Part shown: positions 24,501 through 63,663 of the stretch, piece after piece
How positions within the stretch are numbered: position 1 is the first letter of the stretch
Layout: every line of letters starts with the position of its first letter
From: Nemertoderma westbladi
Lineage: Eukaryota > Animalia > Xenacoelomorpha
Length of the DNA stretch: 64,000 bases
Direction of reading: 5' to 3'
NCBI GenBank assembly: GCA_032718475.1
Contig: JAUCBJ010007869.1
Span: 10,243 to 74,242, forward strand
The notes under the pieces: generated by a model
Seen by the model: the letters and a program-made list of their open reading frames with translations, nothing else
What the model was told of the DNA's origin: nothing
Database searches by the model: none
Translations under genes and position numbers: made by a program

Positions 24501-24539
24501 AACATGAGTTTTGCTACGGAGGGGAATGCTAGATGATTG

Positions 24540-32950: not shown

Positions 32951-33025
32951 GCAGTAATCCAGTCACTGCCTGGGACATGTGCGACTTGGGGCTCATCAGA
33001 GACATTTGATATATATATAATATAT

Positions 33026-34893: not shown

Positions 34894-37107
34894 TTATGAA
34901 TATCCTTCACTACATTCTCTATAGTTCATTGCCGCGATCCCGATTACAGTTGCCAGAATTGCCGCAAGAAGACAATAATCCATAAAAGTACCCTTCCCGA
35001 AGTCAATATTTATTGTCGTCACTTTCTCCGCTGTCACGTTATCACAATTGTTCTGGTTTATCAGTGTTGCTGTAAGTTTCTTTGGCAAAAAGCCAAACTT
35101 ATTTTGGTTTATCGGTGTTGCTGTGACATTCTTTAGTAAATTATCAACCTTATTTTGGCTTACCGGTGTTGTTGTAAATTTCTTTGGTATATTCTCAACC
35201 TTATTTTGGCTTATAGGTGTTGCTGTGACTTTCTTTGGTAAATTCTCAACCTTATTTTGGCTTATAGGTGTTGCTGTGACTTTCTTTGGTAAATTCTCAA
35301 CCTTATTTTGGCTTACCGGTGTTGTTGTAACTTTCTTTGGTATATTCTCAACCATATTTTGGCTTATAGGTGTTGCTGTGACTTTCTTTGGTATATTCTC
35401 AACCTTATTTTGGTTTATCGGTGTTGCTGTGATTTTCTTAGGAAAATTTTCAACCTTATTTTGGCTTATAGGTGTTGCTGTGACTTTCTTTGGTAAATTG
35501 TCAAACTTATTTTGGTTTATCGGTGTTGCTGTGGTTTTCTTACGTAAATTCTCAAACTTATTTTGGCTTATAGGTGTTGCTGTGACTTTCTTTGGTAAAT
35601 TCTCAACCTTATTTTGGCTTATAGGTGTTGTTGTGACTTTCTTTGGTAAATTATCAAACTTATTTTGGTTTATCGGTGTTGCTGTGGTTTTCTTTGGTAT
35701 ATTCTCAACCTTATTTTGGCTTATTGATGTTGCTGCGAATTTCTTTGGTAAATTCTCAACCTTATTTTGGCTTATAGGTGTTGCTGTGGTTTTCTTTGGA
35801 AAATCCTCAAACTTATTTTGGTTTATCGGTGTTGCTGTGGTTTTCTTAGGTAAATTTTTAACCTTATTTTGGCTTATAGGTGTTGCTGTGATTTTCTTTG
35901 GTATATTCTCAACCTTATCTTGGCTTATAGGTGTTGCTGTGGCTTTCTTCTGAAAATTCTCTACCTTATTTTGGCTTACCGGTGTTGTTGTGACTTTCTT
36001 AGGTAAATTCTCAACCTTATGTTGGCTTATAGGTGTTGTTGTAACTTTCTTTGGTAAATTCTCAAACTGGTTTTGGTTTTTCTGAGTCGTTGGAGGTTCT
36101 CTCGCTAGATTACCAGATTTCGTTTCGTTAATTGATGTATCAGTTAATACCCCAGTCGGCTTTCCCTTTGTCATCTCTGGGGCGGCTCCAATTTTCTCTA
36201 AACCCCTATTTAGTAGTGAAATTTCCGTATGACTTTCTCCACTTCCGTTAATTGATTTTGATTTCTTATCCGGATAATTTTGATTCGATAACTGTCTGGG
36301 TAACTGTCCCAACTGTCTGGAACTGTCTGTAACTGTCTGGGCCGTTTTGGGTCCATAAATTTCCAGCCATCTTTTATTATTTATACGATAACCGGCGATT
36401 CTGAGGTTTTCATCACTATCGAGTCCTTGTGCAGTGGCCATGATATGTTTATCTGATGGACTGTCTTTTCGAGGAGATATAATTTTTGGAAAGGGACGAT
36501 TATCTGAAATTCTAGAACTGTCATTCTGGTACTCCAATACAACTCCAGTGCCTGCGATATCGGTTGAAATCCCATTGTTTTTTGTACGAGAATCTTCTGT
36601 TGTTTTAGGAACAGGAGTTTTATCGGGAGGTTTAGTAATACTTCCTCGGAACTCAACTCTGACAAGTTTTCCCCTCTCATCTCCCATCTCTGTTGTTACC
36701 CAATAGTTTTCCTTTGACGACTTATTATTTTCGTTATCATCAACCATTTTTGCGGCTTTGGGCTTTGTGACTTTGGGCTTTTCTTTCTCAATGAAAGGTA
36801 CCGGTATTTGGTTTTCTTTGTTTGCGGTTGCTATGGATTTTTCTACTTTTCTATGAGAGATTGGGGGAATGTTTTTGACATTATCTCCAAATTGTTCCTT
36901 CATCTTCAAACCAATTTTGTCTCCCACTGGAAGTGACGTTAATGTCTTTTTACTTTTACTGCTTGTTTCTTTAGATGGTGGAACATTTTTGCTGTAGTTT
37001 TGGACGATGTCCCATGTTGGTATCTCTGTTCTCAGCCTATGGGAACTCAGAACGGCTGGCTGACGTAGACATTTTCTCATACAAGGAAGAACTCGTAAGG
37101 AATACAT
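34894..37107 (-). CDS. Orphan 737-aa single-exon protein: basic presequence-like N-terminus, K/T/N-rich repeats, C-terminal TM helix
   Basis: Long ORF including ~350 aa of non-repetitive sequence. Start, internal blocks and TM (YCLLAAILATVIGIAAMNYRE) are conserved in frame with paralog 40043..40846. Confidence 0.75.
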   Translation of the reverse strand: MYSLRVLPCMRKCLRQPAVLSSHRLRTEIPTWDIVQNYSKNVPPSKETSSKSKKTLTSLPVGDKIGLKMKEQFGDNVKNIPPISHRKVEKSIATANKENQIPVPFIEKEKPKVTKPKAAKMVDDNENNKSSKENYWVTTEMGDERGKLVRVEFRGSITKPPDKTPVPKTTEDSRTKNNGISTDIAGTGVVLEYQNDSSRISDNRPFPKIISPRKDSPSDKHIMATAQGLDSDENLRIAGYRINNKRWLEIYGPKTAQTVTDSSRQLGQLPRQLSNQNYPDKKSKSINGSGESHTEISLLNRGLEKIGAAPEMTKGKPTGVLTDTSINETKSGNLAREPPTTQKNQNQFENLPKKVTTTPISQHKVENLPKKVTTTPVSQNKVENFQKKATATPISQDKVENIPKKITATPISQNKVKNLPKKTTATPINQNKFEDFPKKTTATPISQNKVENLPKKFAATSISQNKVENIPKKTTATPINQNKFDNLPKKVTTTPISQNKVENLPKKVTATPISQNKFENLRKKTTATPINQNKFDNLPKKVTATPISQNKVENFPKKITATPINQNKVENIPKKVTATPISQNMVENIPKKVTTTPVSQNKVENLPKKVTATPISQNKVENLPKKVTATPISQNKVENIPKKFTTTPVSQNKVDNLLKNVTATPINQNKFGFLPKKLTATLINQNNCDNVTAEKVTTINIDFGKGTFMDYCLLAAILATVIGIAAMNYRECSEGYS
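35040..36070 (-). repeat. 51-bp coding tandem repeat (KKVTATPISQNKVENLP) x~20
   Basis: Frame-preserving units visible in DNA and protein. Confidence 0.95.
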
Positions 37108-37579
37108 TATGTCTTCTAGGGAATTGGTTGGGAATTATGGCGAGGGTGTTGGTGATTGCTTGTGACAGCCTTTATTATTGTACAGTATAATGTTTAAATA
37201 TAGTCATTCTTGGTGGGTTTGTTTGATGGTCGGTTGTTTGTTTGTTAGCTACAGTTCAGCATTCCTAACTAATTATAATTACATACCTAAACTAAAGTAC
37301 TTACATTTAACGTTCTGAAAAATATGTTCTAGAATATTACAGTTCCTATTGACATCAGCGACAAATTTATAATATATTAAACGCAGTTTATATTACTTTA
37401 ATAGCGGTAAAACAAGCTACATTCAAAAAAATAAAACCGCGTAAAGTACCCTATGTCTCAGGCCCTATGATCGTTCTATACAGATACAGTATATAAATCT
37501 GTTAAAATAAAATGACAGTATATCGACAAAACATAATATATCAATACATTAATGAATGGGAGAATCTTTTAGGCTCGTT

Positions 37580-39402: not shown

Positions 39403-40042
39403 TAATATATAATATATATGTATATAATGCAGCTGCAACACAGCATGCCGATAGTAGTAGTAGTATTAAGTACGAATTATGATTTCTGATATCCCTTTAT
39501 TATTTTGGATGAGTTATTTTTTCAAGTACTTTCTTTACATTACATTAGTACTTTACCTTATGATGCGATGCGTATATTTTACTTTATATTACAGTGAGTA
39601 CACTAACACAGTAGACTGGACATAGCCAAATAAAACAAGGAATTGGATTTAAAACCCAAGTGAACGTAAAGTAGATACAATATGAAGTGAACTCTTAGGT
39701 CCCCTCTCACACGGAGCAACAAGCTGCACCGTGTGGGGGTGTGGGGGGGGGGGGGGGGGCATAGGCCTACACTCAAAAATATATAAATAATTTACATTAG
39801 GATCAATAGGAACTATAATATTCTAGAACATATTTTTCAGAACGTTCAATGTAAGTACTTTAGTTTAGGTATGTAATTATAATTAGTTAGGAATGCTGAA
39901 CTGTAGCTAACAAACAAACAACCGACCATCAAACAAACCCACCAAGAATGACTATATTTAAACATTATGCAATAATAAAGGCTGTCACAAGCAATCACCA
40001 ACACCCTCGCCATAATTCCCAACCAATTCCCTAGAAGACATA

Positions 40043-40846
40043 ATGTATTCCTTACGAGTTCTTCCTTGTATGAGAAAATGTCTACGTCAGCCAGCCGTTC
40101 TGAGTTCCCATAAGCTGAGAACAGAGATACCAACATGGGACATCGTCCAAAACTACAGCAAAAATGTTCCACCATCTAAAGAAACAAGCAGTAAAAGTAA
40201 AAAGTTAGAAGATAATTGCAAAAATGTCCAGGAAAAAGAACAAAAATCTATGACGACCGCAAACAAAGAAAACCAAACGAGTAACATTCTGAAACGCAGT
40301 CGCCAAGCCGACGCTGAAGATACCGAAAATAATAAATCGTTAGGAGAAAATTTCTGGGTCATTACAGAGATGGGAGATGAGACGGGAAAACTTGTTAGAG
40401 TCGAGTTCAGGGAAAATATTACTAAACCACCCGATAAAACTCATGTTCCTAAAACAACAGATCCTTCTTCTGTTCCTAAACCAACAACAGATGCTCCTCA
40501 TGTTCCTAAAACAACAACAGCTCCTACTACAAATAAACAATTCATCACAACGGAAATGGCAGAGTTTCGTAAGGATTCCAGCGACATTATGTCAGATAAG
40601 CATATCATGGCCATTGCACGCGAACTTGATAGCAAAGATATACTCAGAATCAAAGACAACGTCTCAGAAAAACATACAGATTCGTCGATAAAGAAGTCTG
40701 ATAACCCAAAGATGGGACCCAAGGCACTAATTAAGAACATAAATAAAGGTAGTTTTAAAGATTACTGTCTCCTTGCGGTAATTCTGGCAACTGTAATCGG
40801 AATCGCGGCAATGAACTATAGAGAATATAGCGAAGAACATTCATAA
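40043..40846 (+). CDS. Orphan 267-aa single-exon protein, inverted paralog of 34894..37107, C-terminal TM
   Basis: Near-identical first ~54 codons, plus shared blocks TANKENQ, WVxTEMGDExGKLVRVEFR, TKPPDKT, SDKHIMA and the TM. Indels between the paralogs preserve frame. Confidence 0.75.
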   Translation: MYSLRVLPCMRKCLRQPAVLSSHKLRTEIPTWDIVQNYSKNVPPSKETSSKSKKLEDNCKNVQEKEQKSMTTANKENQTSNILKRSRQADAEDTENNKSLGENFWVITEMGDETGKLVRVEFRENITKPPDKTHVPKTTDPSSVPKPTTDAPHVPKTTTAPTTNKQFITTEMAEFRKDSSDIMSDKHIMAIARELDSKDILRIKDNVSEKHTDSSIKKSDNPKMGPKALIKNINKGSFKDYCLLAVILATVIGIAAMNYREYSEEHS

Positions 40847-41249
40847 CATCATCAAACAAACCTTTTACAGATAATCCAACTCAGTATTATTTTACTATAG
40901 TTATAAAACATGGTGTTGGTTCAAAATGTCGGTATTCAAACTCGAGTACATCATTATATAATATATACTATATACTGTAATAACATTAACTATATATTAT
41001 ACTGTAATATAATGGTATCATTGGTTACGGCTGCGAGTTAGGAAAGGCCAACATACTGTAACTCGTTATTGTGGTGATCAGAGGTAGGTCAAAATTCAAA
41101 AAACAGAATAATGAACAAATCAAATGCATAATATAACGTCATCTAGCCTAACTGTCTAGGGAAGTTTACAAGAAACAACATAAAATTTCACCAGAATAAT
41201 CCTGACCGCTGATTGGAGGACGACAAAGAGGGATAGATAGGTAGGACAT

Positions 41250-41850
41250 TACCGGTAAGTCAGTACGATATAGTCAGTACCTGTAAGTCAGTACGATATA
41301 GTCAGTACCGGTAAGTCAGTACGATATAGTCAGTACCTGTAAGTCAGTACGATATAGTCAGTACCGGTAAGTCAGTACGATATAGTCAGTACCGGTAAGT
41401 CAGTACGATATAGTCAGTACCGGTAAGTCAGTACGATATAGTCAGTACCGGTAAGTCAGTATGATATAGTCAGTACCGGTAAGTCAGTACGATATAGTCA
41501 GTACCGGTAAGTCAGTACGATATAGTCAGTACCGGTAAGTCAGTACGATATAGTCAGTACCGGTAAGTCAGTACGATATAGTCAGTACCGGTAAGTCAGT
41601 ACGATATAGTCAGTACCGGTAAGTCAGTACGATATAGTCAGTACGATATAGTCAGTACCGGTAAGTCAGTACGATATAGTCAGTACCGAGTTTAGTCAAG
41701 CAGTGTGTTCTGGCTGTCTGGTGTTGTACTGGTATGTTTATTTTTTGATTTGATTTTGATTTTTGATTAAGTCAGTACGATATAGTCAGTACCGGTAAGT
41801 CAGTACGATATAGTCAGTACCGGTAAGTAAGTACGATATAGTCAGTACCG
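41250..41850 (+). repeat. 28-bp minisatellite (gtaccggtaagtcagtacgatatagtca), ~16+3 copies, containing CCG/GTAAGT
   Basis: Visible periodicity; interrupted by a duplicated ~80-bp T-rich block. Confidence 0.9.
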
Positions 41851-43975: not shown

Positions 43976-44144
43976 ATACCACTACAGTCCGCTATTCGGT
44001 ATTCAATTGCACGCAATTTACAATAATTATTATATTAAATTATTATGGTACTAAAACATATTTGTTAGAGAAAGGCAAATTTACGCTTTTCTAATCTTAG
44101 GATTTTTATTATTTATTACAAGTTAGACAAAGAACCCTGGTTGT

Positions 44145-44515
44145 GTTTCACAAATAATACCAAACTCACCCATAATTTTAGCTGTAAACGGACTTCCTGG
44201 GATGTGTTTCATCAATAATACCAAACTCACCCATAATATTAGCTGTAAACGGACTCCCTGGGACATGTTTCGTCAATAATACAAAACTCACCAGTAATTT
44301 TAGCTGTAAACGGACTCCCTGGGACATGTTTCGTCAATAATACAAAACTCACCAGTAATTTTAGCTGTAAACGGACTCCCTGGGATGAGTTTCGTCAATA
44401 ATACAAAACTCACCAGTAATTTTAGCTGTAAACGGACTCACTGGGATGTGTTTCGTCAATAATACAAAACTCACCAGTAATTTTAGCCGTAAACGGACTC
44501 CCTGGGATGTGTTTC
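44145..44515 (-). repeat. 61-bp tandem repeat of filamin exon 3' end + GTGAGT donor, 6 donors
   Basis: ctcacc at 44165, 44226, 44287, 44348, 44409, 44470. The unit includes the exon codons [13 protein letters not shown]. Confidence 0.92.
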
Positions 44516-44648
44516 TCGGCGAATTTCACTGTAATTTTGTACTCGCCGGGTAAGGTAGGGGTGTAGGTGACCGAACATGTGCCGTTCTTGTTGTCTAGAC
44601 AACGTAGCTCCGCCTTTGATGGACCTTCTATAGCCAATGAAAGACCAC
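44475..44648 (-). CDS. FLN: Filamin exon (174 bp): [57 protein letters not shown]
   Basis: Filamin Ig repeat consensus; acceptor atcacag and donor gtgagt; phase 1-1 matches the upstream exon. Confidence 0.95.
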
Positions 44649-45375
44649 CTGTGATGAATAACCATGACGACTATAAGTGCGATCTGGGAACCTGTCTCTA
44701 CAGGTCAGGTCAGGTATTCTAGGTCATTGATCAAGAAAACTTGCCACCTCCATGCAGCATAAAGGAGGTGCCACCTGTAGCTGCATAGACCCTCTTACTA
44801 GGGCAAATCTGGTCCTGTAACTAGGACCCCCTTCGTTCTGGGATAAGGACGCCCTTGGTCCTGGATTAAGGACCCATATACTTAGCTGCAGGGGTATATG
44901 GCCTGGCCAGGCAGATGGTGATCTACCAATGGCTGGTCAGGAGTAGAGTGTTCCATGTCCACTCTGAGAGCACTTCACTGCGACCTGCACCTGGCAGCAG
45001 GGGTACAGGGCATGGCCCAGCAGATGACCTGCACAGCCAATGGTGGGTCATGTGCGCCAGAGTAGATATGGGTGATGGGCCTCATATCTGACTCCACTGC
45101 GACACCCACCATGTGGAATGGCAAACCAGGGTGTGGTATTTGTCCCGAGAGCTGACTCGTCAAAAAAGCACCCCCCAACCACCACTATGGATTACAATAG
45201 TAATGCGGAGGTCCAGCCACTAGAGGCCAGTGGAATGAATGGACACAATCGGCCTCACAGGCGTAAACCTCAGTTATTAAAACCTCAGTAAAATGGTTAT
45301 TCGGGCTACAGTAATACCCGCTTCTCTGCAAAGACCCTAACATAAAACTACCGTAACTAGGTAAACGACACTAAC

Positions 45376-45527
45376 CAGCTCCAGCTTCCTTCGTAACTAT
45401 AGTAAACTCTGCAGGAACACCCGCCTGTCCTGTAGTTAGCCCAGGTCCATGGGCAGTAATGGAGCCGGCCTGCAGGGAGTCCACCCAGAAATGGAACGGG
45501 GAATCCTGCACGCTCACACCGTTATAT
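45376..45527 (-). CDS. FLN: Filamin exon (152 bp): YNGVSVQDSPFHFWVDSLQAGSITAHGPGLTTGQAGVPAEFTIVTKEAGA
   Basis: Acceptor tttacctttacag and donor gttagt; phase 2-1. Colinear with the recalled filamin repeat 16/17 junction (..GSPLQFYVD..VTAYGPGL..FTVNTKDAGEG). Confidence 0.95.
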
Positions 45528-48500
45528 CTGTAAAGGTAAATAGTGGGTGGGGATTCCTTTAATACTAGTTATACAAACTGGAATCCTGCACGCTCACACC
45601 GTTATATCTGTAAAGGTAAATAGTGGGTGGAGATTCCTTTAATACTAGTTATACAAACTGGAATCCTGCACGCTCACACCGTTATATCTGTAAAGGTAAA
45701 TAGTGGGTGGAGATTCCTTTAATACTAGTTATACAAACTGGAATCCTGCACGCTCACACCGTTATATCTGTAAAGGTAAATAGTGGGTGGAGATTCCTTT
45801 AATACTAGTTATACAAACTGGAATCCTGCACGCTCACACCGTTATATCTGTAAAGGTAAATAGTGGGTGGAGATTCCTTTAATACTAGTTATACAAACTG
45901 GAATCCTGCACGCTCACACCGTTATATCTGTAAAGGTAAATAGTGGGTGGAGATTCCTTTAATACTAGTTATACAAACTGGAATCCTGCACGCTCACAGC
46001 GTTATATCTGTAAAGGTAAATAGTGGGTGGAGATTCCTTTAATACTAGTTATACAAACTGGAATCCTGCACGCTCACACCGTTATATCTGTAAAGGATAA
46101 TAGTGGGTGGAGATTCCTTTAATACTAGTTATACAAACTGGAATCCTGCACGCTCACACCGTTATATCTGTAAAGGTAAATAGTGGGTGGAGATTCCTTT
46201 AATACTAGTTATACAAACTGGAATCCTGCACGCTCACAGCGTTATATCTGTAAAGGTAAATAGTGGGTGGAGATTCCTTTAATACTAGTTATACAAACTG
46301 GAATCCTGCACGCTCACACCGTTATATCTGTAAAGGATAATAGTGGGTGGAGATTCCTTTAATACTAGTTATACAAACTGGAATCCTGCACGCTCACACC
46401 GTTATATCTGTAAAGGATAATAGTGGGTGGAGATTCCTTTAATACTAGTTATACAAACTGGAATCCTGCACGCTCACACCGTTATATCTGTAAAGGTAAA
46501 TAGTGGGTGGAGATTCCTTTAATACTAGTTATACAAACTGGAATCCTGCACGCTCACAGCGTTATATCTGTAAAGGTAAATAGTGGGTGGAGATTCCTTT
46601 AATACTAGTTATACAAACTGGAATCCTGCACGCTCACAGCGTTATATCTGTAAAGGTAAATAGTGGGTGGAGATTCCTTTAATACTAGTTATACAAACTG
46701 GAATCCTGCACGCTCACAGCGTTATATCTGTAAAGGTAAATAGTGGGTGGAGATTCCTTTAATACTAGTTATACAAACTGGAATCCTGCACGCTCACTCC
46801 GTAATATCTGTAAAGGTAAATAGTGGGTGGAGATTCCTTTAATACTAGTTATACAAACTGGAATCCTGCACGCTCACAGCGTTATATCTGTAAAGGTAAA
46901 TAGTGGGTGGAGATTCCTTTAATACTAGTTATACAAACTGGAATCCTGCACGCTCACAGCGTTATATCTGTAAAGGTAAATAGTGGGTGGAGATTCCTTT
47001 AATACTAGTTATACAAACTGGAATCCTGCACGCTCACTCCGTAATATCTGTAAAGGTAAATAGTGGTTGGAGATTCCTTTAATACTAGTTATACAAACTG
47101 GAATCCTGCACGCTCACACCGTTATATCTGTAAAGGTAAATAGTGGGTGGAGATTCCTTTAATACTAGTTATACAAACTGGAATCCTGCACGCTCACACC
47201 GTTATATCTGTAAAGGATAATAGTGGGTGGAGATTCCTTTAATACTAGTTATACAAACTGGAATCCTGCACGCTCACAGCGTAATATCTGTAAAGGTAAA
47301 TAGTGGGTGGAGATTCCTTTAATACTAGTTATACAAACTGGAATCCTGCACGCTCACAGCGTTATATCTGTAAAGGTAAATAGTGGGTGGAGATTCCTTT
47401 AATACTAGTTATACAAACTGGAATCCTGCACGCTCACAGCGTTATATCTGTAAAGGTAAATAGTGGGTGGAGATTCCTTTAATACTAGTTATACAAACTG
47501 GAATCCTGCACGCTCACAGCGTTATATCTGTAAAGGTAAATAGTGGGTGGAGATTCCTTTAATACTAGTTATACAAACTGGAATCCTGCACGCTCACTCC
47601 GTAATATCTGTAAAGGTAAATAGTGGGTGGAGATTCCTTTAATACTAGTTATACAAACTGGAATCCTGCACGCTCACAGCGTTATATCTGTAAAGGTAAA
47701 TAGTGGGTGGAGATTCCTTTAATACTAGTTATACAAACTGGAATCCTGCACGCTCACAGCGTTATATCTGTAAAGGTAAATAGTGGGTGGAGATTCCTTT
47801 AATACTAGTTATACAAACTGGAATCCTGCACGCTCACACCGTTATATCTGTAAAGGATAATAGTGGGTGGAGATTCCTTTAATACTAGTTATACAAACTG
47901 GAATCCTGCACGCTCACACCGTTATATCTGTAAAGGTAAATAGTGGTTGGAGATTCCTTTAATACTAGTTATACAAACTGGAATCCTGCACGCTCACACC
48001 GTTATATCTGTAAAGGATAATAGTGGGTGGAGATTCCTTTAATACTAGTTATACAAACTGGAATCCTGCACGCTCACACCGTTATATCTGTAAAGGATAA
48101 TAGTGGGTGGAGATTCCTTTAATACTAGTTATACAAACTGGAATCCTGCACGCTCACACCGTTATATCTGTAAAGGTAAATAGTGGGTGGAGATTCCTTT
48201 AATACTAGTTATACAAACTGGAATCCTGCACGCTCACAGCGTTATATCTGTAAAGGTAAATAGTGGGTGGAGATTCCTTTAATACTAGTTATACAAACTG
48301 GAATCCTGCACGCTCACAGCGTTATATCTGTAAAGGTAAATAGTGGGTGGAGATTCCTTTAATACTAGTTATACAAACTGGAATCCTGCACGCTCACAGC
48401 GTTATATCTGTAAAGGTAAATAGTGGGTGGAGATTCCTTTAATACTAGTTATACAAACTGGAATCCTGCACGCTCACTCCGTAATATCTGTAAAGGTAAA

Positions 48501-51500
48501 TAGTGGGTGGAGATTCCTTTAATACTAGTTATACAAACTGGAATCCTGCACGCTCACAGCGTTATATCTGTAAAGGTAAATAGTGGGTGGAGATTCCTTT
48601 AATACTAGTTATACAAACTGGAATCCTGCACGCTCACAGCGTTATATCTGTAAAGGTAAATAGTGGGTGGAGATTCCTTTAATACTAGTTATACAAACTG
48701 GAATCCTGCACGCTCACTCCGTAATATCTGTAAAGGTAAATAGTGGTTGGAGATTCCTTTAATACTAGTTATACAAACTGGAATCCTGCACGCTCACACC
48801 GTTATATCTGTAAAGGTAAATAGTGGGTGGAGATTCCTTTAATACTAGTTATACAAACTGGAATCCTGCACGCTCACACCGTTATATCTGTAAAGGATAA
48901 TAGTGGGTGGAGATTCCTTTAATACTAGTTATACAAACTGGAATCCTGCACGCTCACAGCGTAATATCTGTAAAGGTAAATAGTGGGTGGAGATTCCTTT
49001 AATACTAGTTATACAAACTGGAATCCTGCACGCTCACTCCGTAATATCTGTAAAGGTAAATAGTGGTTGGAGATTCCTTTAATACTAGTTATACAAACTG
49101 GAATCCTGCACGCTCACACCGTTATATCTGTAAAGGATAATAGTGGGTGGAGATTCCTTTAATACTAGTTATACAAACTGGAATCCTGCACGCTCACTCC
49201 GTAATATCTGTAAAGGTAAATAGTGGGTGGAGATTCCTTTAATACTAGTTATACAAACTGGAATCCTGCACGCTCACAGCGTTATATCTGTAAAGGTAAA
49301 TAGTGGGTGGAGATTCCTTTAATACTAGTTATACAAACTGGAATCCTGCACGCTCACACCGTTATATCTGTAAAGGTAAATAGTGGGTGGAGATTCCTTT
49401 AATACTAGTTATACAAACTGGAATCCTGCACGCTCACACCGTTATATCTGTAAAGGTAAATAGTGGGTGGAGATTCCTTTAATACTAGTTATACAAACTG
49501 GAATCCTGCACGCTCACACCGTTATATCTGTAAAGGATAATAGTGGGTGGAGATTCCTTTAATACTAGTTATACAAACTGGAATCCTGCACGCTCACTCC
49601 GTAATATCTGTAAAGGTAAATAGTGGGTGGAGATTCCTTTAATACTAGTTATACAAACTGGAATCCTGCACGCTCACAGCGTTATATCTGTAAAGGTAAA
49701 TAGTGGGTGGAGATTCCTTTAATACTAGTTATACAAACTGGAATCCTGCACGCTCACACCGTTATATCTGTAAAGGTAAATAGTGGGTGGAGATTCCTTT
49801 AATACTAGTTATACAAACTGGAATCCTGCACGCTCACAGCGTTATATCTGTAAAGGTAAATAGTGGGTGGAGATTCCTTTAATACTAGTTATACAAACTG
49901 GAATCCTGCACGCTCACAGCGTTATATCTGTAAAGGTAAATAGTGGGTGGAGATTCCTTTAATACTAGTTATACAAACTGGAATCCTGCACGCTCACACC
50001 GTTATATCTGTAAAGGATAATAGTGGGTGGAGATTCCTTTAATACTAGTTATACAAACTGGAATCCTGCACGCTCACAGCGTTATATCTGTAAAGGTAAA
50101 TAGTGGGTGGAGATTCCTTTAATACTAGTTATACAAACTGGAATCCTGCACGCTCACAGCGTTATATCTGTAAAGGTAAATAGTGGGTGGAGATTCCTTT
50201 AATACTAGTTATACAAACTGGAATCCTGCACGCTCACAGCGTTATATCTGTAAAGGTAAATAGTGGGTGGAGATTCCTTTAATACTAGTTATACAAACTG
50301 GAATCCTGCACGCTCACAGCGTTATATCTGTAAAGGTAAATAGTGGGTGGAGATTCCTTTAATACTAGTTATACAAACTGGAATCCTGCACGCTCACAGC
50401 GTTATATCTGTAAAGGTAAATAGTGGGTGGAGATTCCTTTAATACTAGTTATACAAACTGGAATCCTGCACGCTCACACCGTTATATCTGTAAAGGATAA
50501 TAGTGGGTGGAGATTCCTTTAATACTAGTTATACAAACTGGAATCCTGCACGCTCACAGCGTTATATCTGTAAAGGTAAATAGTGGGTGGAGATTCCTTT
50601 AATACTAGTTATACAAACTGGAATCCTGCACGCTCACACCGTTATATCTGTAAAGGATAATAGTGGGTGGAGATTCCTTTAATACTAGTTATACAAACTG
50701 GAATCCTGCACGCTCACAGCGTTATATCTGTAAAGGTAAATAGTGGGTGGAGATTCCTTTAATACTAGTTATACAAACTGGAATCCTGCACGCTCACAGC
50801 GTTATATCTGTAAAGGTAAATAGTGGGTGGAGATTCCTTTAATACTAGTTATACAAACTGGAATCCTGCACGCTCACACCGTTATATCTGTAAAGGTAAA
50901 TAGTGGGTGGAGATTCCTTTAATACTAGTTATACAAACTGGAATCCTGCACGCTCACACCGTTATATCTGTAAAGGTAATAGTGGGTGGAGATTCCTTTA
51001 ATACTAGTTATACAAACTGGAATCCTGCACGCTCACAGCGTTATATCTGTAAAGGTAAATAGTGGGTGGAGATTCCTTTAATACTAGTTATACAAACTGG
51101 AATCCTGCACGCTCACAGCGTTATATCTGTAAAGGTAAATAGTGGGTGGAGATTCCTTTAATACTAGTTATACAAACTGGAATCCTGCACGCTCACACCG
51201 TTATATCTGTAAAGGTAAATAGTGGGTGGAGATTCCTTTAATACTAGTTATACAAACTGGAATCCTGCACGCTCACAGCGTTATATCTGTAAAGGTAAAT
51301 AGTGGGTGGAGATTCCTTTAATACTAGTTATACAAACTGGAATCCTGCACGCTCACAGCGTTATATCTGTAAAGGTAAATAGTGGGTGGAGATTCCTTTA
51401 ATACTAGTTATACAAACTGGAATCCTGCACGCTCACAGCGTTATATCTGTAAAGGTAATAGTGGGTGGAGATTCCTTTAATACTAGTTATACAAACTGGA

Positions 51501-54500
51501 ATCCTGCACGCTCACAGCGTTATATCTGTAAAGGTAAATAGTGGGTGGAGATTCCTTTAATACTAGTTATACAAACTGGAATCCTGCACGCTCACAGCGT
51601 TATATCTGTAAAGGTAAATAGTGGGTGGAGATTCCTTTAATACTAGTTATACAAACTGGAATCCTGCACGCTCACAGCGTTATATCTGTAAAGGTAAATA
51701 GTGGGTGGAGATTCCTTTAATACTAGTTATACAAACTGGAATCCTGCACGCTCACACCGTTATATCTGTAAAGGTAAATAGTGGGTGGAGATTCCTTTAA
51801 TACTAGTTATACAAACTGGAATCCTGCACGCTCACACCGTTATATCTGTAAAGGTAAATAGTGGGTGGAGATTCCTTTAATACTAGTTATACAAACTGGA
51901 ATCCTGCACGCTCACAGCGTTATATCTGTAAAGGTAAATAGTGGGTGGAGATTCCTTTAATACTAGTTATACAAACTGGAATCCTGCACGCTCACACCGT
52001 TATATCTGTAAAGGTAAATAGTGGGTGGAGATTCCTTTAATACTAGTTATACAAACTGGAATCCTGCACGCTCACACCGTTATATCTGTAAAGGTAAATA
52101 GTGGGTGGAGATTCCTTTAATACTAGTTATACAAACTGGAATCCTGCACGCTCACACCGTTATATCTGTAAAGGTAAATAGTGGGTGGAGATTCCTTTAA
52201 TACTAGTTATACAAACTGGAATCCTGCACGCTCACAGCGTTATATCTGTAAAGGTAAATAGTGGGTGGAGATTCCTTTAATACTAGTTATACAAACTGGA
52301 ATCCTGCACGCTCACACCGTTATATCTGTAAAGGTATAATAGTGGGTGGAGATTCCTTTAATACTAGTTATACAAACTGGAATCCTGCACGCTCACACCG
52401 TTATATCTGTAAAGGTAAATAGTGGGTGGAGATTCCTTTAATACTAGTTATACAAACTGGAATCCTGCACGCTCACACCGTTATATCTGTAAAGGTAAAT
52501 AGTGGGTGGAGATTCCTTTAATACTAGTTATACAAACTGGAATCCTGCACGCTCACACCGTTATATCTGTAAAGGTAAATAGTGGGTGGAGATTCCTTTA
52601 ATACTAGTTATACAAACTGGAATCCTGCACGCTCACACCGTTATATCTGTAAAGGTAAATAGTGGGTGGAGATTCCTTTAATACTAGTTATACAAACTGG
52701 AATCCTGCACGCTCACACCGTTATATCTGTAAAGGTAAATAGTGGGTGGAGATTCCTTTAATACTAGTTATACAAACTGGAATCCTGCACGCTCACACCG
52801 TTATATCTGTAAAGGTAAATAGTGGGTGGAGATTCCTTTAATACTAGTTATACAAACTGGAATCCTGCACGCTCACACCGTTATATCTGTAAAGGATAAT
52901 AGTGGGTGGAGATTCCTTTAATACTAGTTATACAAACTGGAATCCTGCACGCTCACAGCCGTTATATCTGTAAAGGTAAATAGTGGGTGGAGATTCCTTT
53001 AATACTAGTTATACAAACTGGAATCCTGCACGCTCACAGCGTTATATCTGTAAAGGTATAATAGTGGGTGGAGATTCCTTTAATACTAGTTATACAAACT
53101 GGAATCCTGCACGCTCACAGCGTTATATCTGTAAAGGTAAATAGTGGGTGGAGATTCCTTTAATACTAGTTATACAAACTGGAATCCTGCACGCTCACAG
53201 CGTTATATCTGTAAAGGTAAATAGTGGGTGGAGATTCCTTTAATACTAGTTATACAAACTGGAATCCTGCACGCTCACAGCGTTATATCTGTAAAGGTAA
53301 ATAGTGGGTGGAGATTCCTTTAATACTAGTTATACAAACTGGAATCCTGCACGCTCACAGCGTTATATCTGTAAAGGTAAATAGTGGGTGGAGATTCCTT
53401 TAATACTAGTTATACAAACTGGAATCCTGCACGCTCACAGCGTTATATCTGTAAAGGTAAATAGTGGGTGGAGATTCCTTTAATACTAGTTATACAAACT
53501 GGAATCCTGCACGCTCACAGCGTTATATCTGTAAAGGTAAATAGTGGGTGGAGATTCCTTTAATACTAGTTATACAAACTGGAATCCTGCACGCTCACAG
53601 CGTTATATCTGTAAAGGTAAATAGTGGGTGGAGATTCCTTTAATACTAGTTATACAAACTGGAATCCTGCACGCTCACAGCGTTATATCTGTAAAGGTAA
53701 ATAGTGGGTGGAGATTCCTTTAATACTAGTTATACAAACTGGAATCCTGCACGCTCACAGCGTTATATCTGTAAAGGTAAATAGTGGGTGGAGATTCCTT
53801 TAATACTAGTTATACAAACTGGAATCCTGCACGCTCACAGCGTTATATCTGTAAAGGTAAATAGTGGGTGGAGATTCCTTTAATACTAGTTATACAAACT
53901 GGAATCCTGCACGCTCACAGCGTTATATCTGTAAAGGTAAATAGTGGGTGGAGATTCCTTTAATACTAGTTATACAAACTGGAATCCTGCACGCTCACAG
54001 CGTTATATCTGTAAAGGTAAATAGTGGGTGGAGATTCCTTTAATACTAGTTATACAAACTGGAATCCTGCACGCTCACAGCGTTATATCTGTAAAGGTAA
54101 ATAGTGGGTGGAGATTCCTTTAATACTAGTTATACAAACTGGAATCCTGCACGCTCACACCGTTATATCTGTAAAGGTAAATAGTGGGTGGAGATTCCTT
54201 TAATACTAGTTATACAAACTGGAATCCTGCACGCTCACACCGTTATATCTGTAAAGGTAAATAGTGGGTGGAGATTCCTTTAATACTAGTTATACAAACT
54301 GGAATCCTGCACGCTCACAGCGTTATATCTGTAAAGGTAAATAGTGGGTGGAGATTCCTTTAATACTAGTTATACAAACTGGAATCCTGCACGCTCACAC
54401 CGTTATATCTGTAAAGGTAAATAGTGGGTGGAGATTCCTTTAATACTAGTTATACAAACTGGAATCCTGCACGCTCACAGCGTTATATCTGTAAAGGTAA

Positions 54501-57500
54501 ATAGTGGGTGGAGATTCCTTTAATACTAGTTATACAAACTGGAATCCTGCACGCTCACACCGTTATATCTGTAAAGGTAAATAGTGGGTGGAGATTCCTT
54601 TAATACTAGTTATACAAACTGGAATCCTGCACGCTCACAGCGTTATATCTGTAAAGGTAAATAGTGGGTGGAGATTCCTTTAATACTAGTTATACAAACT
54701 GGAATCCTGCACGCTCACAGCGTTATATCTGTAAAGGTAAATAGTGGGTGGAGATTCCTTTAATACTAGTTATACAAACTGGAATCCTGCACGCTCACAC
54801 CGTTATATCTGTAAAGGTAAATAGTGGGTGGAGATTCCTTTAATACTAGTTATACAAACTGGAATCCTGCACGCTCACAGCGTTATATCTGTAAAGGATA
54901 ATAGTGGGTGGAGATTCCTTTAATACTAGTTATACAAACTGGAATCCTGCACGCTCACAGCGTTATATCTGTAAAGGTAAATAGTGGGTGGAGATTCCTT
55001 TAATACTAGTTATACAAACTGGAATCCTGCACGCTCACAGCGTTATATCTGTAAAGGTAAATAGTGGGTGGAGATTCCTTTAATACTAGTTATACAAACT
55101 GGAATCCTGCACGCTCACACCGTTATATCTGTAAAGGTAAATAGTGGGTGGAGATTCCTTTAATACTAGTTATACAAACTGGAATCCTGCACGCTCACAG
55201 CGTTATATCTGTAAAGGTAAATAGTGGGTGGAGATTCCTTTAATACTAGTTATACAAACTGGAATCCTGCACGCTCACAGCGTTATATCTGTAAAGGTAA
55301 ATAGTGGGTGGAGATTCCTTTAATACTAGTTATACAAACTGGAATCCTGCACGCTCACACCGTTATATCTGTAAAGGATAATAGTGGGTGGAGATTCCTT
55401 TAATACTAGTTATACAAACTGGAATCCTGCACGCTCACAGCGTTATATCTGTAAAGGTAAATAGTGGGTGGAGATTCCTTTAATACTAGTTATACAAACT
55501 GGAATCCTGCACGCTCACACCGTTATATCTGTAAAGGTAAATAGTGGGTGGAGATTCCTTTAATACTAGTTATACAAACTGGAATCCTGCACGCTCACAG
55601 CGTTATATCTGTAAAGGTATAATAGTGGGTGGAGATTCCTTTAATACTAGTTATACAAACTGGAATCCTGCACGCTCACAGCGTTATATCTGTAAAGGTA
55701 AATAGTGGGTGGAGATTCCTTTAATACTAGTTATACAAACTGGAATCCTGCACGCTCACAGCGTTATATCTGTAAAGGTAAATAGTGGGTGGAGATTCCT
55801 TTAATACTAGTTATACAAACTGGAATCCTGCACGCTCACAGCGTTATATCTGTAAAGGTAATAGTGGGTGGAGATTCCTTTAATACTAGTTATACAAACT
55901 GGAATCCTGCACGCTCACAGCGTTATATCTGTAAAGGTAAATAGTGGGTGGAGATTCCTTTAATACTAGTTATACAAACTGGAATCCTGCACGCTCACAG
56001 CGTTATATCTGTAAAGGTAAATAGTGGGTGGAGATTCCTTTAATACTAGTTATACAAACTGGAATCCTGCACGCTCACAGCGTTATATCTGTAAAGGTAA
56101 ATAGTGGGTGGAGATTCCTTTAATACTAGTTATACAAACTGGAATCCTGCACGCTCACAGCGTTATATCTGTAAAGGTAAATAGTGGGTGGAGATTCCTT
56201 TAATACTAGTTATACAAACTGGAATCCTGCACGCTCACAGCGTTATATCTGTAAAGGTAAATAGTGGGTGGAGATTCCTTTAATACTAGTTATACAAACT
56301 GGAATCCTGCACGCTCACAGCGTTATATCTGTAAAGGTAAATAGTGGGTGGAGATTCCTTTAATACTAGTTATACAAACTGGAATCCTGCACGCTCACAG
56401 CGTTATATCTGTAAAGGTAAATAGTGGGTGGAGATTCCTTTAATACTAGTTATACAAACTGGAATCCTGCACGCTCACAGCGTTATATCTGTAAAGGTAA
56501 ATAGTGGGTGGAGATTCCTTTAATACTAGTTATACAAACTGGAATCCTGCACGCTCACACCGTTATATCTGTAAAGGTAAATAGTGGGTGGAGATTCCTT
56601 TAATACTAGTTATACAAACTGGAATCCTGCACGCTCACACCGTTATATCTGTAAAGGTAAATAGTGGGTGGAGATTCCTTTAATACTAGTTATACAAACT
56701 GGAATCCTGCACGCTCACAGCGTTATATCTGTAAAGGTAAATAGTGGGTGGAGATTCCTTTAATACTAGTTATACAAACTGGAATCCTGCACGCTCACAC
56801 CGTTATATCTGTAAAGGTAAATAGTGGGTGGAGATTCCTTTAATACTAGTTATACAAACTGGAATCCTGCACGCTCACACCGTTATATCTGTAAAGGTAA
56901 ATAGTGGGTGGAGATTCCTTTAATACTAGTTATACAAACTGGAATCCTGCACGCTCACACCGTTATATCTGTAAAGGTAAATAGTGGGTGGAGATTCCTT
57001 TAATACTAGTTATACAAACTGGAATCCTGCACGCTCACAGCGTTATATCTGTAAAGGTAAATAGTGGGTGGAGATTCCTTTAATACTAGTTATACAAACT
57101 GGAATCCTGCACGCTCACACCGTTATATCTGTAAAGGTAAATAGTGGGTGGAGATTCCTTTAATACTAGTTATACAAACTGGAATCCTGCACGCTCACAC
57201 CGTTATATCTGTAAAGGTATAATAGTGGGTGGAGATTCCTTTAATACTAGTTATACAAACTGGAATCCTGCACGCTCACACCGTTATATCTGTAAAGGAT
57301 AATAGTGGGTGGAGATTCCTTTAATACTAGTTATACAAACTGGAATCCTGCACGCTCACACCGTTATATCTGTAAAGGTAAATAGTGGGTGGAGATTCCT
57401 TTAATACTAGTTATACAAACTGGAATCCTGCACGCTCACACCGTTATATCTGTAAAGGATAATAGTGGGTGGAGATTCCTTTAATACTAGTTATACAAAC

Positions 57501-60500
57501 TGGAATCCTGCACGCTCACACCGTTATATCTGTAAAGGTAAATAGTGGGTGGAGATTCCTTTAATACTAGTTATACAAACTGGAATCCTGCACGCTCACA
57601 CCGTTATATCTGTAAAGGTAAATAGTGGGTGGAGATTCCTTTAATACTAGTTATACAAACTGGAATCCTGCACGCTCACACCGTTATATCTGTAAAGGTA
57701 AATAGTGGGTGGAGATTCCTTTAATACTAGTTATACAAACTGGAATCCTGCACGCTCACACCGTTATATCTGTAAAGGATAATAGTGGGTGGAGATTCCT
57801 TTAATACTAGTTATACAAACTGGAATCCTGCACGCTCACACCGTTATATCTGTAAAGGTAAATAGTGGGTGGAGATTCCTTTAATACTAGTTATACAAAC
57901 TGGAATCCTGCACGCTCACACCGTTATATCTGTAAAGGTAAATAGTGGGTGGAGATTCCTTTAATACTAGTTATACAAACTGGAATCCTGCACGCTCACA
58001 CCGTTATATCTGTAAAGGTAAATAGTGGGTGGAGATTCCTTTAATACTAGTTATACAAACTGGAATCCTGCACGCTCACACCGTTATATCTGTAAAGGTA
58101 AATAGTGGGTGGAGATTCCTTTAATACTAGTTATACAAACTGGAATCCTGCACGCTCACACCGTTATATCTGTAAAGGTAAATAGTGGGTGGAGATTCCT
58201 TTAATACTAGTTATACAAACTGGAATCCTGCACGCTCACACCGTTATATCTGTAAAGGTAAATAGTGGGTGGAGATTCCTTTAATACTAGTTATACAAAC
58301 TGGAATCCTGCACGCTCACACCGTTATATCTGTAAAGGTAAATAGTGGGTGGAGATTCCTTTAATACTAGTTATACAAACTGGAATCCTGCACGCTCACA
58401 CCGTTATATCTGTAAAGGTAAATAGTGGGTGGAGATTCCTTTAATACTAGTTATACAAACTGGAATCCTGCACGCTCACACCGTTATATCTGTAAAGGTA
58501 AATAGTGGGTGGAGATTCCTTTAATACTAGTTATACAAACTGGAATCCTGCACGCTCACAGCGTTATATCTGTAAAGGTAAATAGTGGGTGGAGATTCCT
58601 TTAATACTAGTTATACAAACTGGAATCCTGCACGCTCACAGCGTTATATCTGTAAAGGTAAATAGTGGGTGGAGATTCCTTTAATACTAGTTATACAAAC
58701 TGGAATCCTGCACGCTCACACCGTTATATCTGTAAAGGTAAATAGTGGGTGGAGATTCCTTTAATACTAGTTATACAAACTGGAATCCTGCACGCTCACA
58801 CCGTTATATCTGTAAAGGTAAATAGTGGGTGGAGATTCCTTTAATACTAGTTATACAAACTGGAATCCTGCACGCTCACACCGTTATATCTGTAAAGGTA
58901 AATAGTGGGTGGAGATTCCTTTAATACTAGTTATACAAACTGGAATCCTGCACGCTCACACCGTTATATCTGTAAAGGTAAATAGTGGGTGGAGATTCCT
59001 TTAATACTAGTTATACAAACTGGAATCCTGCACGCTCACACCGTTATATCTGTAAAGGTAAATAGTGGGTGGAGATTCCTTTAATACTAGTTATACAAAC
59101 TGGAATCCTGCACGCTCACACCGTTATATCTGTAAAGGTAAATAGTGGGTGGAGATTCCTTTAATACTAGTTATACAAACTGGAATCCTGCACGCTCACA
59201 GCGTTATATCTGTAAAGGTAAATAGTGGGTGGAGATTCCTTTAATACTAGTTATACAAACTGGAATCCTGCACGCTCACACCGTTATATCTGTAAAGGTA
59301 AATAGTGGGTGGAGATTCCTTTAATACTAGTTATACAAACTGGAATCCTGCACGCTCACACCGTTATATCTGTAAAGGTAAATAGTGGGTGGAGATTCCT
59401 TTAATACTAGTTATACAAACTGGAATCCTGCACGCTCACACCGTTATATCTGTAAAGGATAATAGTGGGTGGAGATTCCTTTAATACTAGTTATACAAAC
59501 TGGAATCCTGCACGCTCACAGCGTTATATCTGTAAAGGTAAATAGTGGGTGGAGATTCCTTTAATACTAGTTATACAAACTGGAATCCTGCACGCTCACA
59601 GCGTTATATCTGTAAAGGTAAATAGTGGGTGGAGATTCCTTTAATACTAGTTATACAAACTGGAATCCTGCACGCTCACACCGTTATATCTGTAAAGGTA
59701 AATAGTGGGTGGAGATTCCTTTAATACTAGTTATACAAACTGGAATCCTGCACGCTCACACCGTTATATCTGTAAAGGTATAATAGTGGGTGGAGATTCC
59801 TTTAATACTAGTTATACAAACTGGAATCCTGCACGCTCGCAGCGTTATATCTGTAAAGGTAAATACTGGGTGGAGATTCCTTTAATACTAGTTATACAAA
59901 CTGGAATCCTGCACGCTGACAGCGTTATATCTGTAAAGGTAAATAGTGGGTGGAGATTCCTTTAATACTAGTTATACAAACTGGAATCCTGCACGCTGAC
60001 AGCGTTATATCTGTAAAGGTAAATAGTGGGTGGAGATTCCTTTAATACTAGTTATACAAACTGGAATCCTGCACGCTCACACCGTTATATCTGTAAAGGT
60101 AAATAGTGGGTGGAGATTCCTTTAATACTAGTTATACAAACTGGAATCCTGCACGCTCACACCGTTATATCTGTAAAGGTAAATAGTGGGTGGAGATTCC
60201 TTTAATACTAGTTGTACAAACTGGAATCCTGCACGCTCACACCGTTATATCTGTAAAGGTAAATAGTGGATGGAGATTCCTTTAATACTAGTTATACAAA
60301 CTGGAATCCTGCACGCTCACACCGTTATATCTGTAAAGGTAAATAGTGGGTGGAGATTCCTTTAATACTAGTTATACAAACTGGAATCCTGCACGCTCAC
60401 ACCGTTATATCTGTAAAGGTAAATAGTGGGTGGAGATTCCTTTAATACTAGTTATACAAACTGGAATCCTGCACGCTCACAGCGTTATATCTGTAAAGGT

Positions 60501-61241
60501 AAATAGTGGGTGGAGATTCCTTTAATACTAGTTATACAAACTGGAATCCTGCACGCTCACACCGTTATATCTGTAAAGGTAAATAGTGGGTGGAGATTCC
60601 TTTAATACTAGTTATACAAACTGGAATCCTGCACGCTCACACCGTTATATCTGTAAAGGTAAATAGTGGGTGGAGATTCCTTTAATACTAGTTATACAAA
60701 CTGGAATCCTGCACGCTCACACCGTTATATCTGTAAAGGTAAATAGTGGGTGGAGATTCCTTTAATACTAGTTATACAAACTGGAATCCTGCACGCTCAC
60801 ACCGTTATATCTGTAAAGGTAAATAGTGGGTGGAGATTCCTTTAATACTAGTTATACAAACTGGAATCCTGCACGCTCACACCGTTATATCTGTAAAGGT
60901 AAATAGTGGGTGGAGATTCCTTTAATACTAGTTATACAAACTGGAATCCTGCACGCTCACACCGTTATATCTGTAAAGGTAAATAGTGGGTGGAGATTCC
61001 TTTAATACTAGTTATACAAACTGGAATCCTGCACGCTCACACCGTTATATCTGTAAAGGATAATAGTGGGTGGAGATTCCTTTAATACTAGTTATACAAA
61101 CTGGAATCCTGCACGCTCACAGCGTTATATCTGTAAAGGTAAATAGTGGGTGGAGATTCCTTTAATAATAGTTATACAAACTGGAATCCTGCACGCTCAC
61201 ACAGTTATATCTGTAAAGGTAAATAGTGGGTGGAGATTCCT
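45500..61241 (-). repeat. 80-bp satellite, ~197 copies: intron 3' end + CAG acceptor + first ~28 nt of the filamin exon
   Basis: Minus unit ...ctatttacctttacag|ATATAACGGTGTGAGCGTGCAGGATTCC... Acceptors run from 45528 to 61211. Confidence 0.97.
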
Positions 61242-61310
61242 TATACAAACTACATAGTTTGTGGAATAAACGGAATAGATATACATAGAGTTGTTAGGGC
61301 TACTTATAAC

Positions 61311-63098
61311 CGCTTACCTAATAAACAGATCGTGTCTCCCCAGTTCTGTTGGCGTATATTTCGCTTACCTAATAAACAGATCGTGTCTCCCCAGTTCTGT
61401 TGGCGTATATTCCGCTTACCTAATAAACAGATCGTGTCTCCCCAGTTCTGTTGGCGTATATTTCGCTTACCTAATAAACAGATCGTGTCTCCCCAGTTCT
61501 GTTGGCGTATATTTCGCTTACCTAATAAACAGATCGTGTCTCCCCAGTTCTGTTGGCGTATATTTCGCTTACCTAATAAACAGAACGTGTCTCCCCAGTT
61601 CTGTTGGCGTATATTTCACTTACCTAATAAACAGATCGTGTCTCCCCAGTTCTGTTGGCGTATATTTCACTTACCTAATAAACAGATCGTGTCTCCCCAG
61701 TTCTGTTGGCGTATATTTCACTTACCTAATAAACAGATCGTGTCTCCCCAGTTCTGTTGGCGTATATTTCGCTTACCTAATAAACAGATCGTGTCTCCCC
61801 AGTTCTGTTGGCGTATATTTCGCTTACCTAATAAACAGATCGTGTCTCCCCAGTTCTGTTGGCGTATATTTCGCTTACCTAATAAACAGATCGTGTCTCC
61901 CCAGTTCTGTTGGCGTATATTTCGCTTACCTAATAAACAGATCGTGTCTCCCCAGTTCTGTTGGCGTATATTTCACTTACCTAATAAACAGATCGTGTCT
62001 CCCCAGTTCTGTTGGCGTATATTTCGCTTACCTAATAAACAGATCGTGTCTCCCCAGTTCTGTTGGCGTATATTTCGCTTACCTAATAAACAGATCGTGT
62101 CTCCCCAGTTCTGTTGGCGTATATTTCACTTACCTAATAAACAGATCGTGTCTCCCCAGTTCTGTTGGCGTATATTTCACTTACCTAATAAACAGATCGT
62201 GTCTCCCCAGTTCTGTTGGCGTATATTTCACTTACCTAATAAACAGATCGTGTCTCCCCAGTTCTGTTGGCGTATATTTCGCTTACCTAATAAACAGATC
62301 GTGTCTCCCCAGTTCTGTTGGCGTATATTTCGCTTACCTAATAAACAGATCGTGTCTCCCCAGTTCTGTTGGCGTATATTTCGCTTACCTAATAAACAGA
62401 TCGTGTCTCCCCAGTTCTGTTGGCGTATATTTCGCTTACCTAATAAACAGATCGTGTCTCCCCAGTTCTGTTGGTGTATATTTCGCTTACCTAATAAACA
62501 GATCGTGTCTCCCCAGTTCTGTTGGCGTATATTTCACTTACCTAATAAACAGATCGTGTCTCCCCAGTTCTGTTGGCGTATATTCCGCTTACCTAATAAA
62601 CAGATCGTGTTTCCCCAGTTCTGTTGGCGTATATTTCGCTTACCTAATAAACAGATCGTGTCTCCCCAGTTCTGTTGGCGTATATTTCGCTTACCTAATA
62701 AACAGATCGTGTCTCCCCAGTTCTGTTGGCATATATTTCGCTTACCTAATAAACAGATCGTGTCTCCCCAGTTCTGTTGGCGTATATTCCGCTTACCTAA
62801 TAAACAGATCGTGTCTCCCCAGTTCTGTTGGCGTATATTCCGCTTACCTAATAAACAGATCGTGTCTCCCCAGTTCTGTTGGCGTATATTCCGCTTACCT
62901 AATAAACAGATCGTGTCTCCCCAGTTCTGTTGGCGTATATTCCGCTTACCTAATAAACAGATCGTGTCTCCCCAGTTCTGTTGGCGTATATTTCGCTTAC
63001 CTAATAAACAGATCGTGTCTCCCCAGTTCTGTTGGCGTATATTCCGCTTACCTAATAAACAGATCGTGTCTCCCCAGTTCTGTTGGCGTATATTTCAC
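61311..63098 (-). repeat. 51-bp tandem repeat, 35 copies: last ~45 nt of filamin exon + GTAAG donor
   Basis: Minus unit GAAATATACGCCAACAGAACTGGGGAGACACGATCTGTTTATTAG|gtaagc. cttac runs from 61313 to 63047 (34 x 51). Confidence 0.97.
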
Positions 63099-63169
63099 CG
63101 TTATTGTTCCCTCAACATTTTCAATAATATTTGGAATTCCGATTTTGCCAGAGGGCATTCGAACTTCAC
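63052..63169 (-). CDS. FLN: Filamin exon (118 bp): [40 protein letters not shown]
   Basis: Acceptor gttatag and donor gtaagc; phase 1-2. Matches recalled filamin repeat 16 ([40 protein letters not shown]). Confidence 0.95.
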
Positions 63170-63380: not shown

Positions 63381-63663
63381 CGGTAGCTCTACTGGGTCCC
63401 AGACTGCCGGGCTCACAAGGAATCGTTAGGTCAACCGGCCGCGCCTGCCCTGGGGACCCCGGGTACGTCTGGGGAGTGAACAACTCAGCCGCTGGGCGCG
63501 GAGACATAAAGTCCGGCGCCCCAGGGGACGGGAATCCGCCGCTAGGGGGACCCGCTTGCTGCTCCCGCTGGGGGGAGTGTTGCTGGAACATGTCGTCTTC
63601 GTCGACAGGACGATGACCGAATGGGCGTTGACCCTGGGGGGTTGGCTTGTCTTTCCCTTGAAC
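63381..63663 (-). CDS. FLN: Filamin exon (283 bp): Pro/Gln-rich hinge 1 plus start of repeat 16 (RPVDLTIP...ATG)
   Basis: Acceptor ttaacag, donor gtaagt, open phase 0-1; joins in frame to GEVRMPSG. Confidence 0.85.

Follow-up and report, generated by a model that had tools for sequence, protein, structure and literature searches.

How the spliceosome finds the right pair of sites in an intron made largely of copies of its own two splice junctions is the question raised by a filamin gene of the xenacoelomorph Nemertoderma westbladi. The gene lies on the reverse strand of a stretch of 64,000 nucleotides (GenBank assembly GCA_032718475.1, contig JAUCBJ010007869.1, positions 10,243 to 74,242), which we refer to as the window and to which all coordinates below belong. 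Four of its exons were found, named A to D in the order in which they are read, and the predicted intron between exons B and C begins with a tandem array of its donor junction and ends with a tandem array of its acceptor junction (Table 1). These arrays are a real, very large and two-sided mirage minisatellite, a member of a class that is itself already known. To judge from the DNA sequence, the two minisatellites probably grew from an intron of 107–118 bp, and splicing probably continues to run from the first donor to the last acceptor, each of them the copy nearest to its own exon.

The anatomy of the intron is clear. On the side of exon B, Tandem Repeats Finder (TRF) reports 51 bp × 35.0 at 61311–63096 with 98% matches, and an exact motif count gives 35 donor sites whose first intron base runs from 63051 down to 61317. 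Each unit consists of 44 exon and 7 intron bases and so spans the exon–intron border. On the side of exon C the report is 80 bp × 196.8 at 45500–61242, again with 98% matches, and the motif count gives 197 acceptor sites with the last intron base running from 61211 down to 45528; here the unit has 52 intron and 28 exon bases and spans the intron–exon border. The copy numbers proposed for both arrays by a first-pass annotation of the window (35 and about 197) are thus confirmed. The GT or AG is undamaged in every copy (35/35 donors and 197/197 acceptors), identity among the units of both arrays is about 98–99%, and the acceptor units, in an array 15.7 kb long, account for 90% of the intron. A block of 12 units with rare variants is present twice in the array, with a score of 38.6 bits, whereas none of 200 shuffles exceeded 20.4 bits; this is the pattern of unequal exchange or minisatellite turnover and not of mis-assembly.

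The unique sequence between the arrays had been put at about 70 bp (61241–61310) and the collapsed intron at about 130 bp. Both figures come down, because the innermost acceptor unit is a divergent edge copy that is 11 nt short: the core is 59 bp, and with a core of that size and a shortened innermost unit the original intron had 107–118 bases. The outer donor and acceptor enclose 17,524 bases and the inner pair 107 (118 with a full-length unit), so that two facing arrays have enlarged the intron about 160-fold. Gain of the intron itself by tandem duplication of an AG|GT site (the Rogers model) was considered and rejected, since the 59-bp core and the 52- and 7-base intron parts are unrelated to either exon; the intron is older than the arrays.

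The four exons have canonical borders and join into one open filamin frame that is 57–62% identical to filamins, with no gap at the junction across the large intron. The best of 120 homologues aligns with 62% identity over 149 amino acids without a gap, and filamin matches, 50–77% identical, are spread over many animal groups and give no supported placement of the host. At the end of exon B, the tblastn matches of 14 of 15 filamins stop at 63051–63060. When all 35 × 197 pairings of donor and acceptor were translated, a single one of the 6,895 proved open, that of the outermost donor (63051) and the outermost acceptor (45528), donor 1 with acceptor 197, and the claim that only this pair is productive therefore holds as far as the reading frame is concerned. 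Among the closed pairings, 6,698 reach a stop on the donor side, directly past the junction, and the other 196 stop 13–16 codons after an inner acceptor. Any duplication that spans a junction and has a stop in its intron part will, by its geometry, leave the outermost pair as the sole one in frame, so that this result is no sign of a choice by the spliceosome among all 6,895. As expected of a mirage, the terminal unit of each array supplies the authentic exon border, both by reading frame and by the ungapped filamin alignment.

The other two introns measure 211 nt (exon A to exon B) and 727 nt (exon C to exon D), the latter only 163 nt without an inserted repeat. No Pfam family matched exon A; it encodes about 75 proline- and glutamine-rich residues directly before the filamin repeat, perhaps a lineage-specific hinge. 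A 26-base exon pattern had no matches in metagenome contigs.

A third junction array, missed by the first-pass annotation, has a 61-bp unit and copies the donor of exon D six times, with all six donor signals kept; its second donor likewise leads to a stop. Its unit loops back on itself in the contigs of both public sequencing runs that cover the locus (X1 and X3, see below). No microhomology at the breakpoints was found for the acceptor array, and the donor and 61-bp arrays have only a short or imperfect likeness there.

Table 1. Features of the filamin locus, in window coordinates
Feature	Position	Strand	Evidence
Filamin exon A, 283 nt, proline-rich linker	63381..63663	-	Open frame, AG/GT borders; last part aligns to filamins
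Filamin exon B, 118 nt; last 44 nt in first donor unit	63052..63169	-	Pfam Filamin E=0.0013, below curated cut-off
Predicted intron, outermost donor to outermost acceptor, 17,524 nt	45528..63051	-	Sole open pairing of 6,895
Donor array, 35 × 51 bp, each with exon tail + AG/GTAAG	61311..63096	-	TRF, motif counts
Non-repeated core of original intron, 59 bp	61252..61310	-	Sequence
Acceptor array, 197 × 80 bp: pyrimidine tract, CAG, 28 nt exon head; innermost 11 nt short	45500..61251	-	TRF, motif counts, depth in X1/X3
Filamin exon C, 152 nt; first 28 nt in last acceptor unit	45376..45527	-	Pfam Filamin E=3.1e-6; tblastn
Filamin exon D, 174 nt, last filamin exon found in window	44475..44648	-	Pfam Filamin E=6.6e-17
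Third junction array, 61 bp × 6.3, six GTGAGT donors (41 exon + 20 intron bases)	44135..44515	-	TRF; joint 'goes back 61' in X1/X3
High-copy dispersed repeat, 564 of 727 nt of next intron	44701..45264	.	Contig depth in X1/X3

What is unusual here is the size and the facing layout, as arrays of this kind are known from lancelets and from humans. Mirages, repeats that span exon–intron borders, were named in the lancelet Adh3 gene and are described in the lancelet globins BflGb6 and BflGb9, in troponin C and in PGBD5, on either side of an intron, with no disturbance of splicing reported (PMC3087553, PMC3902484). Their units are given as 10–160 bp long (PMC3087553), a range that includes the 51, 80 and 61 bp found here. 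The amphioxus mirages are also described as unstable in length and as evolving in concert with divergent edge units (PMC3087553, PMC3902484), and the filamin arrays resemble them in that the tandem units span exon–intron borders, the splice signals are copied along and one edge unit diverges. BflGb6, however, has 3–6 units of 81–100% identity, whereas filamin has 35 and 197 units of about 98–99% identity facing each other in one intron.

On the human side, the 37-bp variable number tandem repeat of F7 intron 7 has 5–9 identical donors of which only the most upstream is used, a preference attributed to 5'-to-3' scanning; the donor repeats of LMNB2 and PDGF are described as behaving in the same way, and in CBS intron 13 and 6-16 the next two donor copies are used too (PMC1557585). 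In all of these, as in filamin, the first unit spans the donor and identical pseudo-donors follow downstream, but they lie on the donor side only, with 5–25 copies, and face no acceptor array. For acceptors the closest case is the human CBS 844ins68 allele, in which the end of an intron and the start of an exon are duplicated and the distal, exon-side one of two identical acceptors is chosen (PMC1802585, citing Romano 2002; PMC4479818); there are only two copies there and the G-runs between them steer the choice, in contrast to 197 copies over 15.7 kb. Variable tandem repeats have also been reported at exon–intron borders of human duplicated genes (PMC2812944). Our search of the literature, mainly of open-access main texts and with the original Adh3 description outside it, returned no case with facing arrays or with more than 100 copies.

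We consider it probable that nothing beyond the ordinary recognition of exons selects the outermost pair. A small duplication across each junction would have seeded each array; slippage or unequal exchange would then have lengthened the arrays, in a genome that abounds in minisatellites. Through cross-exon proximity and oriented scanning for donors, the acceptor upstream of exon B (118 nt) would be recognised together with the first donor, and the last acceptor together with the donor that follows exon C (152 nt). Mis-joined RNA with an early stop would go to nonsense-mediated decay, which would leave the arrays as tolerated passengers. The seeding duplications, the exon definition of B and C and the decay of mis-joins are steps that we infer, next to an anatomy, intact sites and stops that are observed.

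The rule invoked here is that sites nearest across the exon are preferred in long-intron contexts, and those nearest across the intron in short ones of less than about 250 nt, as described in PMC9225289. With donors 1–4, exon B would measure 118, 169, 220 and 271 nt, and from acceptor 197 inward exon C would measure 152, 232, 312 and 392 nt; because successive inner copies lengthen the exons, an exon-side rule picks donor 1 and acceptor 197. The GT sites within the acceptor unit agree with 2–5 of the 9 positions of the donor consensus, compared with 7–8 in the four true donors (a crude score), and since only such weak sites lie behind them the inner acceptors would define no exon. The first-pass annotation had the spliceosome choosing among some 35 × 197 pairs, but under exon definition the competitors are reduced to the few sites nearest each exon. 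It had also called for an unusual selection rule; the candidates it named, exon definition and stepwise splicing, still stand, but no new rule is needed where cross-exon proximity already predicts the outermost pair. Two physical devices were tried separately and rejected. Structural masking of the inner sites is not borne out by the predicted openness, which is 0.23 at the first donor and 0.37 at inner donors, and 0.61 at the last acceptor compared with 0.57 at inner acceptors. Pairing between donor and acceptor units that would bring the ends together is not borne out either (-39.0 kcal/mol, with 81 of 200 shuffles as low).

Several points count against the selection of the outermost pair by cross-exon proximity. 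Use of this pair is a prediction from the reading frame in DNA. The inner 107-nt pair is the one favoured by the short-intron rule (<250 nt; PMC9225289), and with flanking introns as short as 211 nt and, once the repeat is left out, 163 nt, the gene may lean on intron definition. The exon-side preference is given as weaker for acceptors than for donors (PMC9225289), and the true acceptor here is transcribed only after 196 identical ones. In human CBS intron 13 and 6-16 some of the inner donors are used (PMC1557585), all precedents are vertebrate or lancelet with at most about 25 copies, and the gene may be truncated.

This last point leads to the alternative that survives best, namely that this filamin copy is truncated or dead and that its arrays grow without any constraint from splicing, which we regard as unlikely. 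Although 117 of the 120 homologues continue for at least 100 residues past the last exon found, the 44 kb left after 44475 yielded no filamin exon, either by tblastn with 15 filamins or by a profile of the next 300 residues run over 2,781 six-frame segments; a very short exon could escape these searches. The other introns of the gene are short, and the DNA downstream holds long interspersed nuclear elements (LINEs), a piggyBac-like remnant and inverted duplications, with an uninterrupted eIF4G gene of the same orientation among them. That no exon was found after exon D may be due to truncation of the copy, to a mis-join or to an intron of great length; a long, transposon-filled intron could extend past the window. 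Against a dead copy stand the four open exons with their canonical sites and filamin identity, together with a Gly codon that is conserved in the terminal acceptor unit but present in 97 of 196 inner units (a weak point, from a count at a fixed position).

A further point comes from public DNA reads. Of seven public runs listed for the locus, none of them recorded as RNA (which carries no information on expression), four (X1, X3, X4 and X6) were compared over 44455–45579; X1 and X3 come from two studies, one of which may be the source of the assembly. In X1 the locus is represented by a 321-base contig with no differences at a depth of 18.8, and in X3 by a 274-base piece with two differences at a depth of 25.7. 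The one exon difference listed for X3 is synonymous, a single site that tells weakly against a dead copy. Holes over the exons in X1 and X3 possibly come from a filter of the comparison tool. X4 and X6 have coverage on the dispersed repeat of the next intron only and not on the exons, and give no evidence on filamin. Together, the open exons and the one synonymous difference weakly favour a live gene.

The intron could also be taken out stepwise from the inside, which we think improbable. The inner 107-nt intron would be removed first, each cut would leave a new intron of 131 nt, and the first donor and last acceptor would be joined last; the donor units could in addition act as ratchet points. 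Both lengths fall below the limit of about 250 nt given for intron definition (PMC9225289), and it follows from the layout that any cut between donors 2–35 and acceptors 1–196 keeps the outer pair intact. Inner cuts would do no harm provided that donor 1 and acceptor 197 remained unused, and this is nested splicing of the kind described, along with recursive splicing, in dystrophin (PMC4829307). There too inner sites could shorten a long intron before the final cut, and the AG|GT of each donor unit fits the recursive type in that a cut to a donor unit rebuilds a donor. The acceptor units read AG|AT and rebuild none, so that the ratchet signature of AG followed by a donor GT is present in the donor units and absent from the acceptor units; moreover, the cases in PMC4829307 have scattered sites, unlike the tandem copies of true junctions seen here. 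The numbers are also unequal: with one donor consumed per acceptor, the 34 spare donors run out long before the 196 spare acceptors, and the last step therefore still needs exon definition. One could go further and imagine, at the same low probability, a self-shortening intron that is peeled from the inside while exon definition holds donor 1 and the last acceptor, with the 35:197 copy ratio, apparently variable between samples, setting the split between filamin RNA that is completed and filamin RNA that decays, in effect a splicing rheostat.

It is very unlikely, in our judgement, that the arrays come from a process aimed at splice junctions, or that they are kept since repeat number tunes filamin output through mis-splicing and decay. 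Arrays lie on three of the eight filamin splice borders seen. Among the 19 arrays of the window (period ≥21, one row per array from TRF), three fall on filamin junctions where 0.16 would be expected with the arrays collapsed, a count in a window chosen for this feature and with untranslated exons uncounted. The excess has P ~0.0005 over the window and ~0.02 within 42–64 kb, both subject to the same selection, and so gives a hint of targeting only. Outside the filamin arrays, 15% of the window still consists of arrays, and among the 19 there are 16 away from any known junction. One array elsewhere, at 41250–41850 on the forward strand, has 21 copies of a 28-bp unit with the perfect donor-like word CG|GTAAGT; no coding exon was found in front of it, and it could be the mirage of an untranslated exon or could be due to chance.

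The case for output control looks to a difference between samples. Summed contig depth, which is a rough measure and not a copy number, comes to about 1,700 for the acceptor unit in X1 and 8,900–11,700 in X3, or about 90 and 345–456 times single-copy depth, compared with 197 copies in the window. By this rough measure the two runs are about 4–5-fold apart relative to single-copy DNA. What depth establishes is a high copy number; on length variation it offers no more than a hint. That the arrays are artefacts of assembly is scarcely credible: nine of 196 units are 79 or 81 bp long and look like residual read errors, and the exact number of 197 is not spanned by a single read, but the excess depth of the acceptor unit appears in runs from two studies (one possibly the source) and the units carry ordered variants and the duplicated 12-unit block.

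Provided that the gene is expressed, intron definition, which favours the inner 107-nt pair, and exon definition, which favours the outer 17.5-kb pair, compete here in nature with the sequence of the sites held constant, and the question arises how a donor is kept waiting through the transcription of 196 identical acceptors. The locus also marks a way for an intron of 110 bp to reach 17.5 kb with no help from transposons. In a dead copy, the arrays would be no more than a large but ordinary mirage.

The surroundings of the gene are rich in repeats. The dispersed repeat in the next intron has a summed contig depth of about 0.2–0.76 million compared with 19–26 for single-copy sequence, or roughly 19,000–27,000 times single-copy depth, in X1 and X3. 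Like a short interspersed nuclear element, it is truncated at one end, and the other is sharp and carries a short GACCT-type tandem tail; it is present too in a run labelled as a second organism.

The eIF4G gene (8881–13578, reverse strand) is an uninterrupted frame of 1,565 codons with eIF4E-binding, MIF4G, MA3 and W2 regions, and is possibly a retrogene. Its GC content is 50–65%, compared with about 39% around it, and it includes a 21-bp coding repeat at 11923–12243. Its best matches are about 50–53% identical and come from many animal groups; in a tree with 19 other rows its core reaches no more than 54% identity to any of them (54% to Branchiostoma) and forms a long branch with no supported placement. 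Judged by this protein, the host has no close annotated relatives and is unlikely to be a lancelet, less clearly so if this eIF4G is a fast-evolving retrocopy.

Three LINE-type elements, one of them with an endonuclease–reverse transcriptase frame of 1,144 codons, and a piggyBac-like DDE_Tnp_1_7 remnant lie among 2900–6579, 21105–25487, 29803–33072 and 18817–19985. An inverted duplication (34883–37352 and 39803–40857) is up to 100% complementary over 235 nt, with a 63-bp × 21 array between its arms, and covers a 746-codon frame with 17-residue repeats (34894–37134, reverse strand) and a 276-codon partner (40016–40846, forward strand); neither frame gave a convincing Pfam match. Fold-backs at 27583–29046 and 33028–34049 have nested inverted arms and internal repeats of 30–31 bp, like non-autonomous DNA elements.

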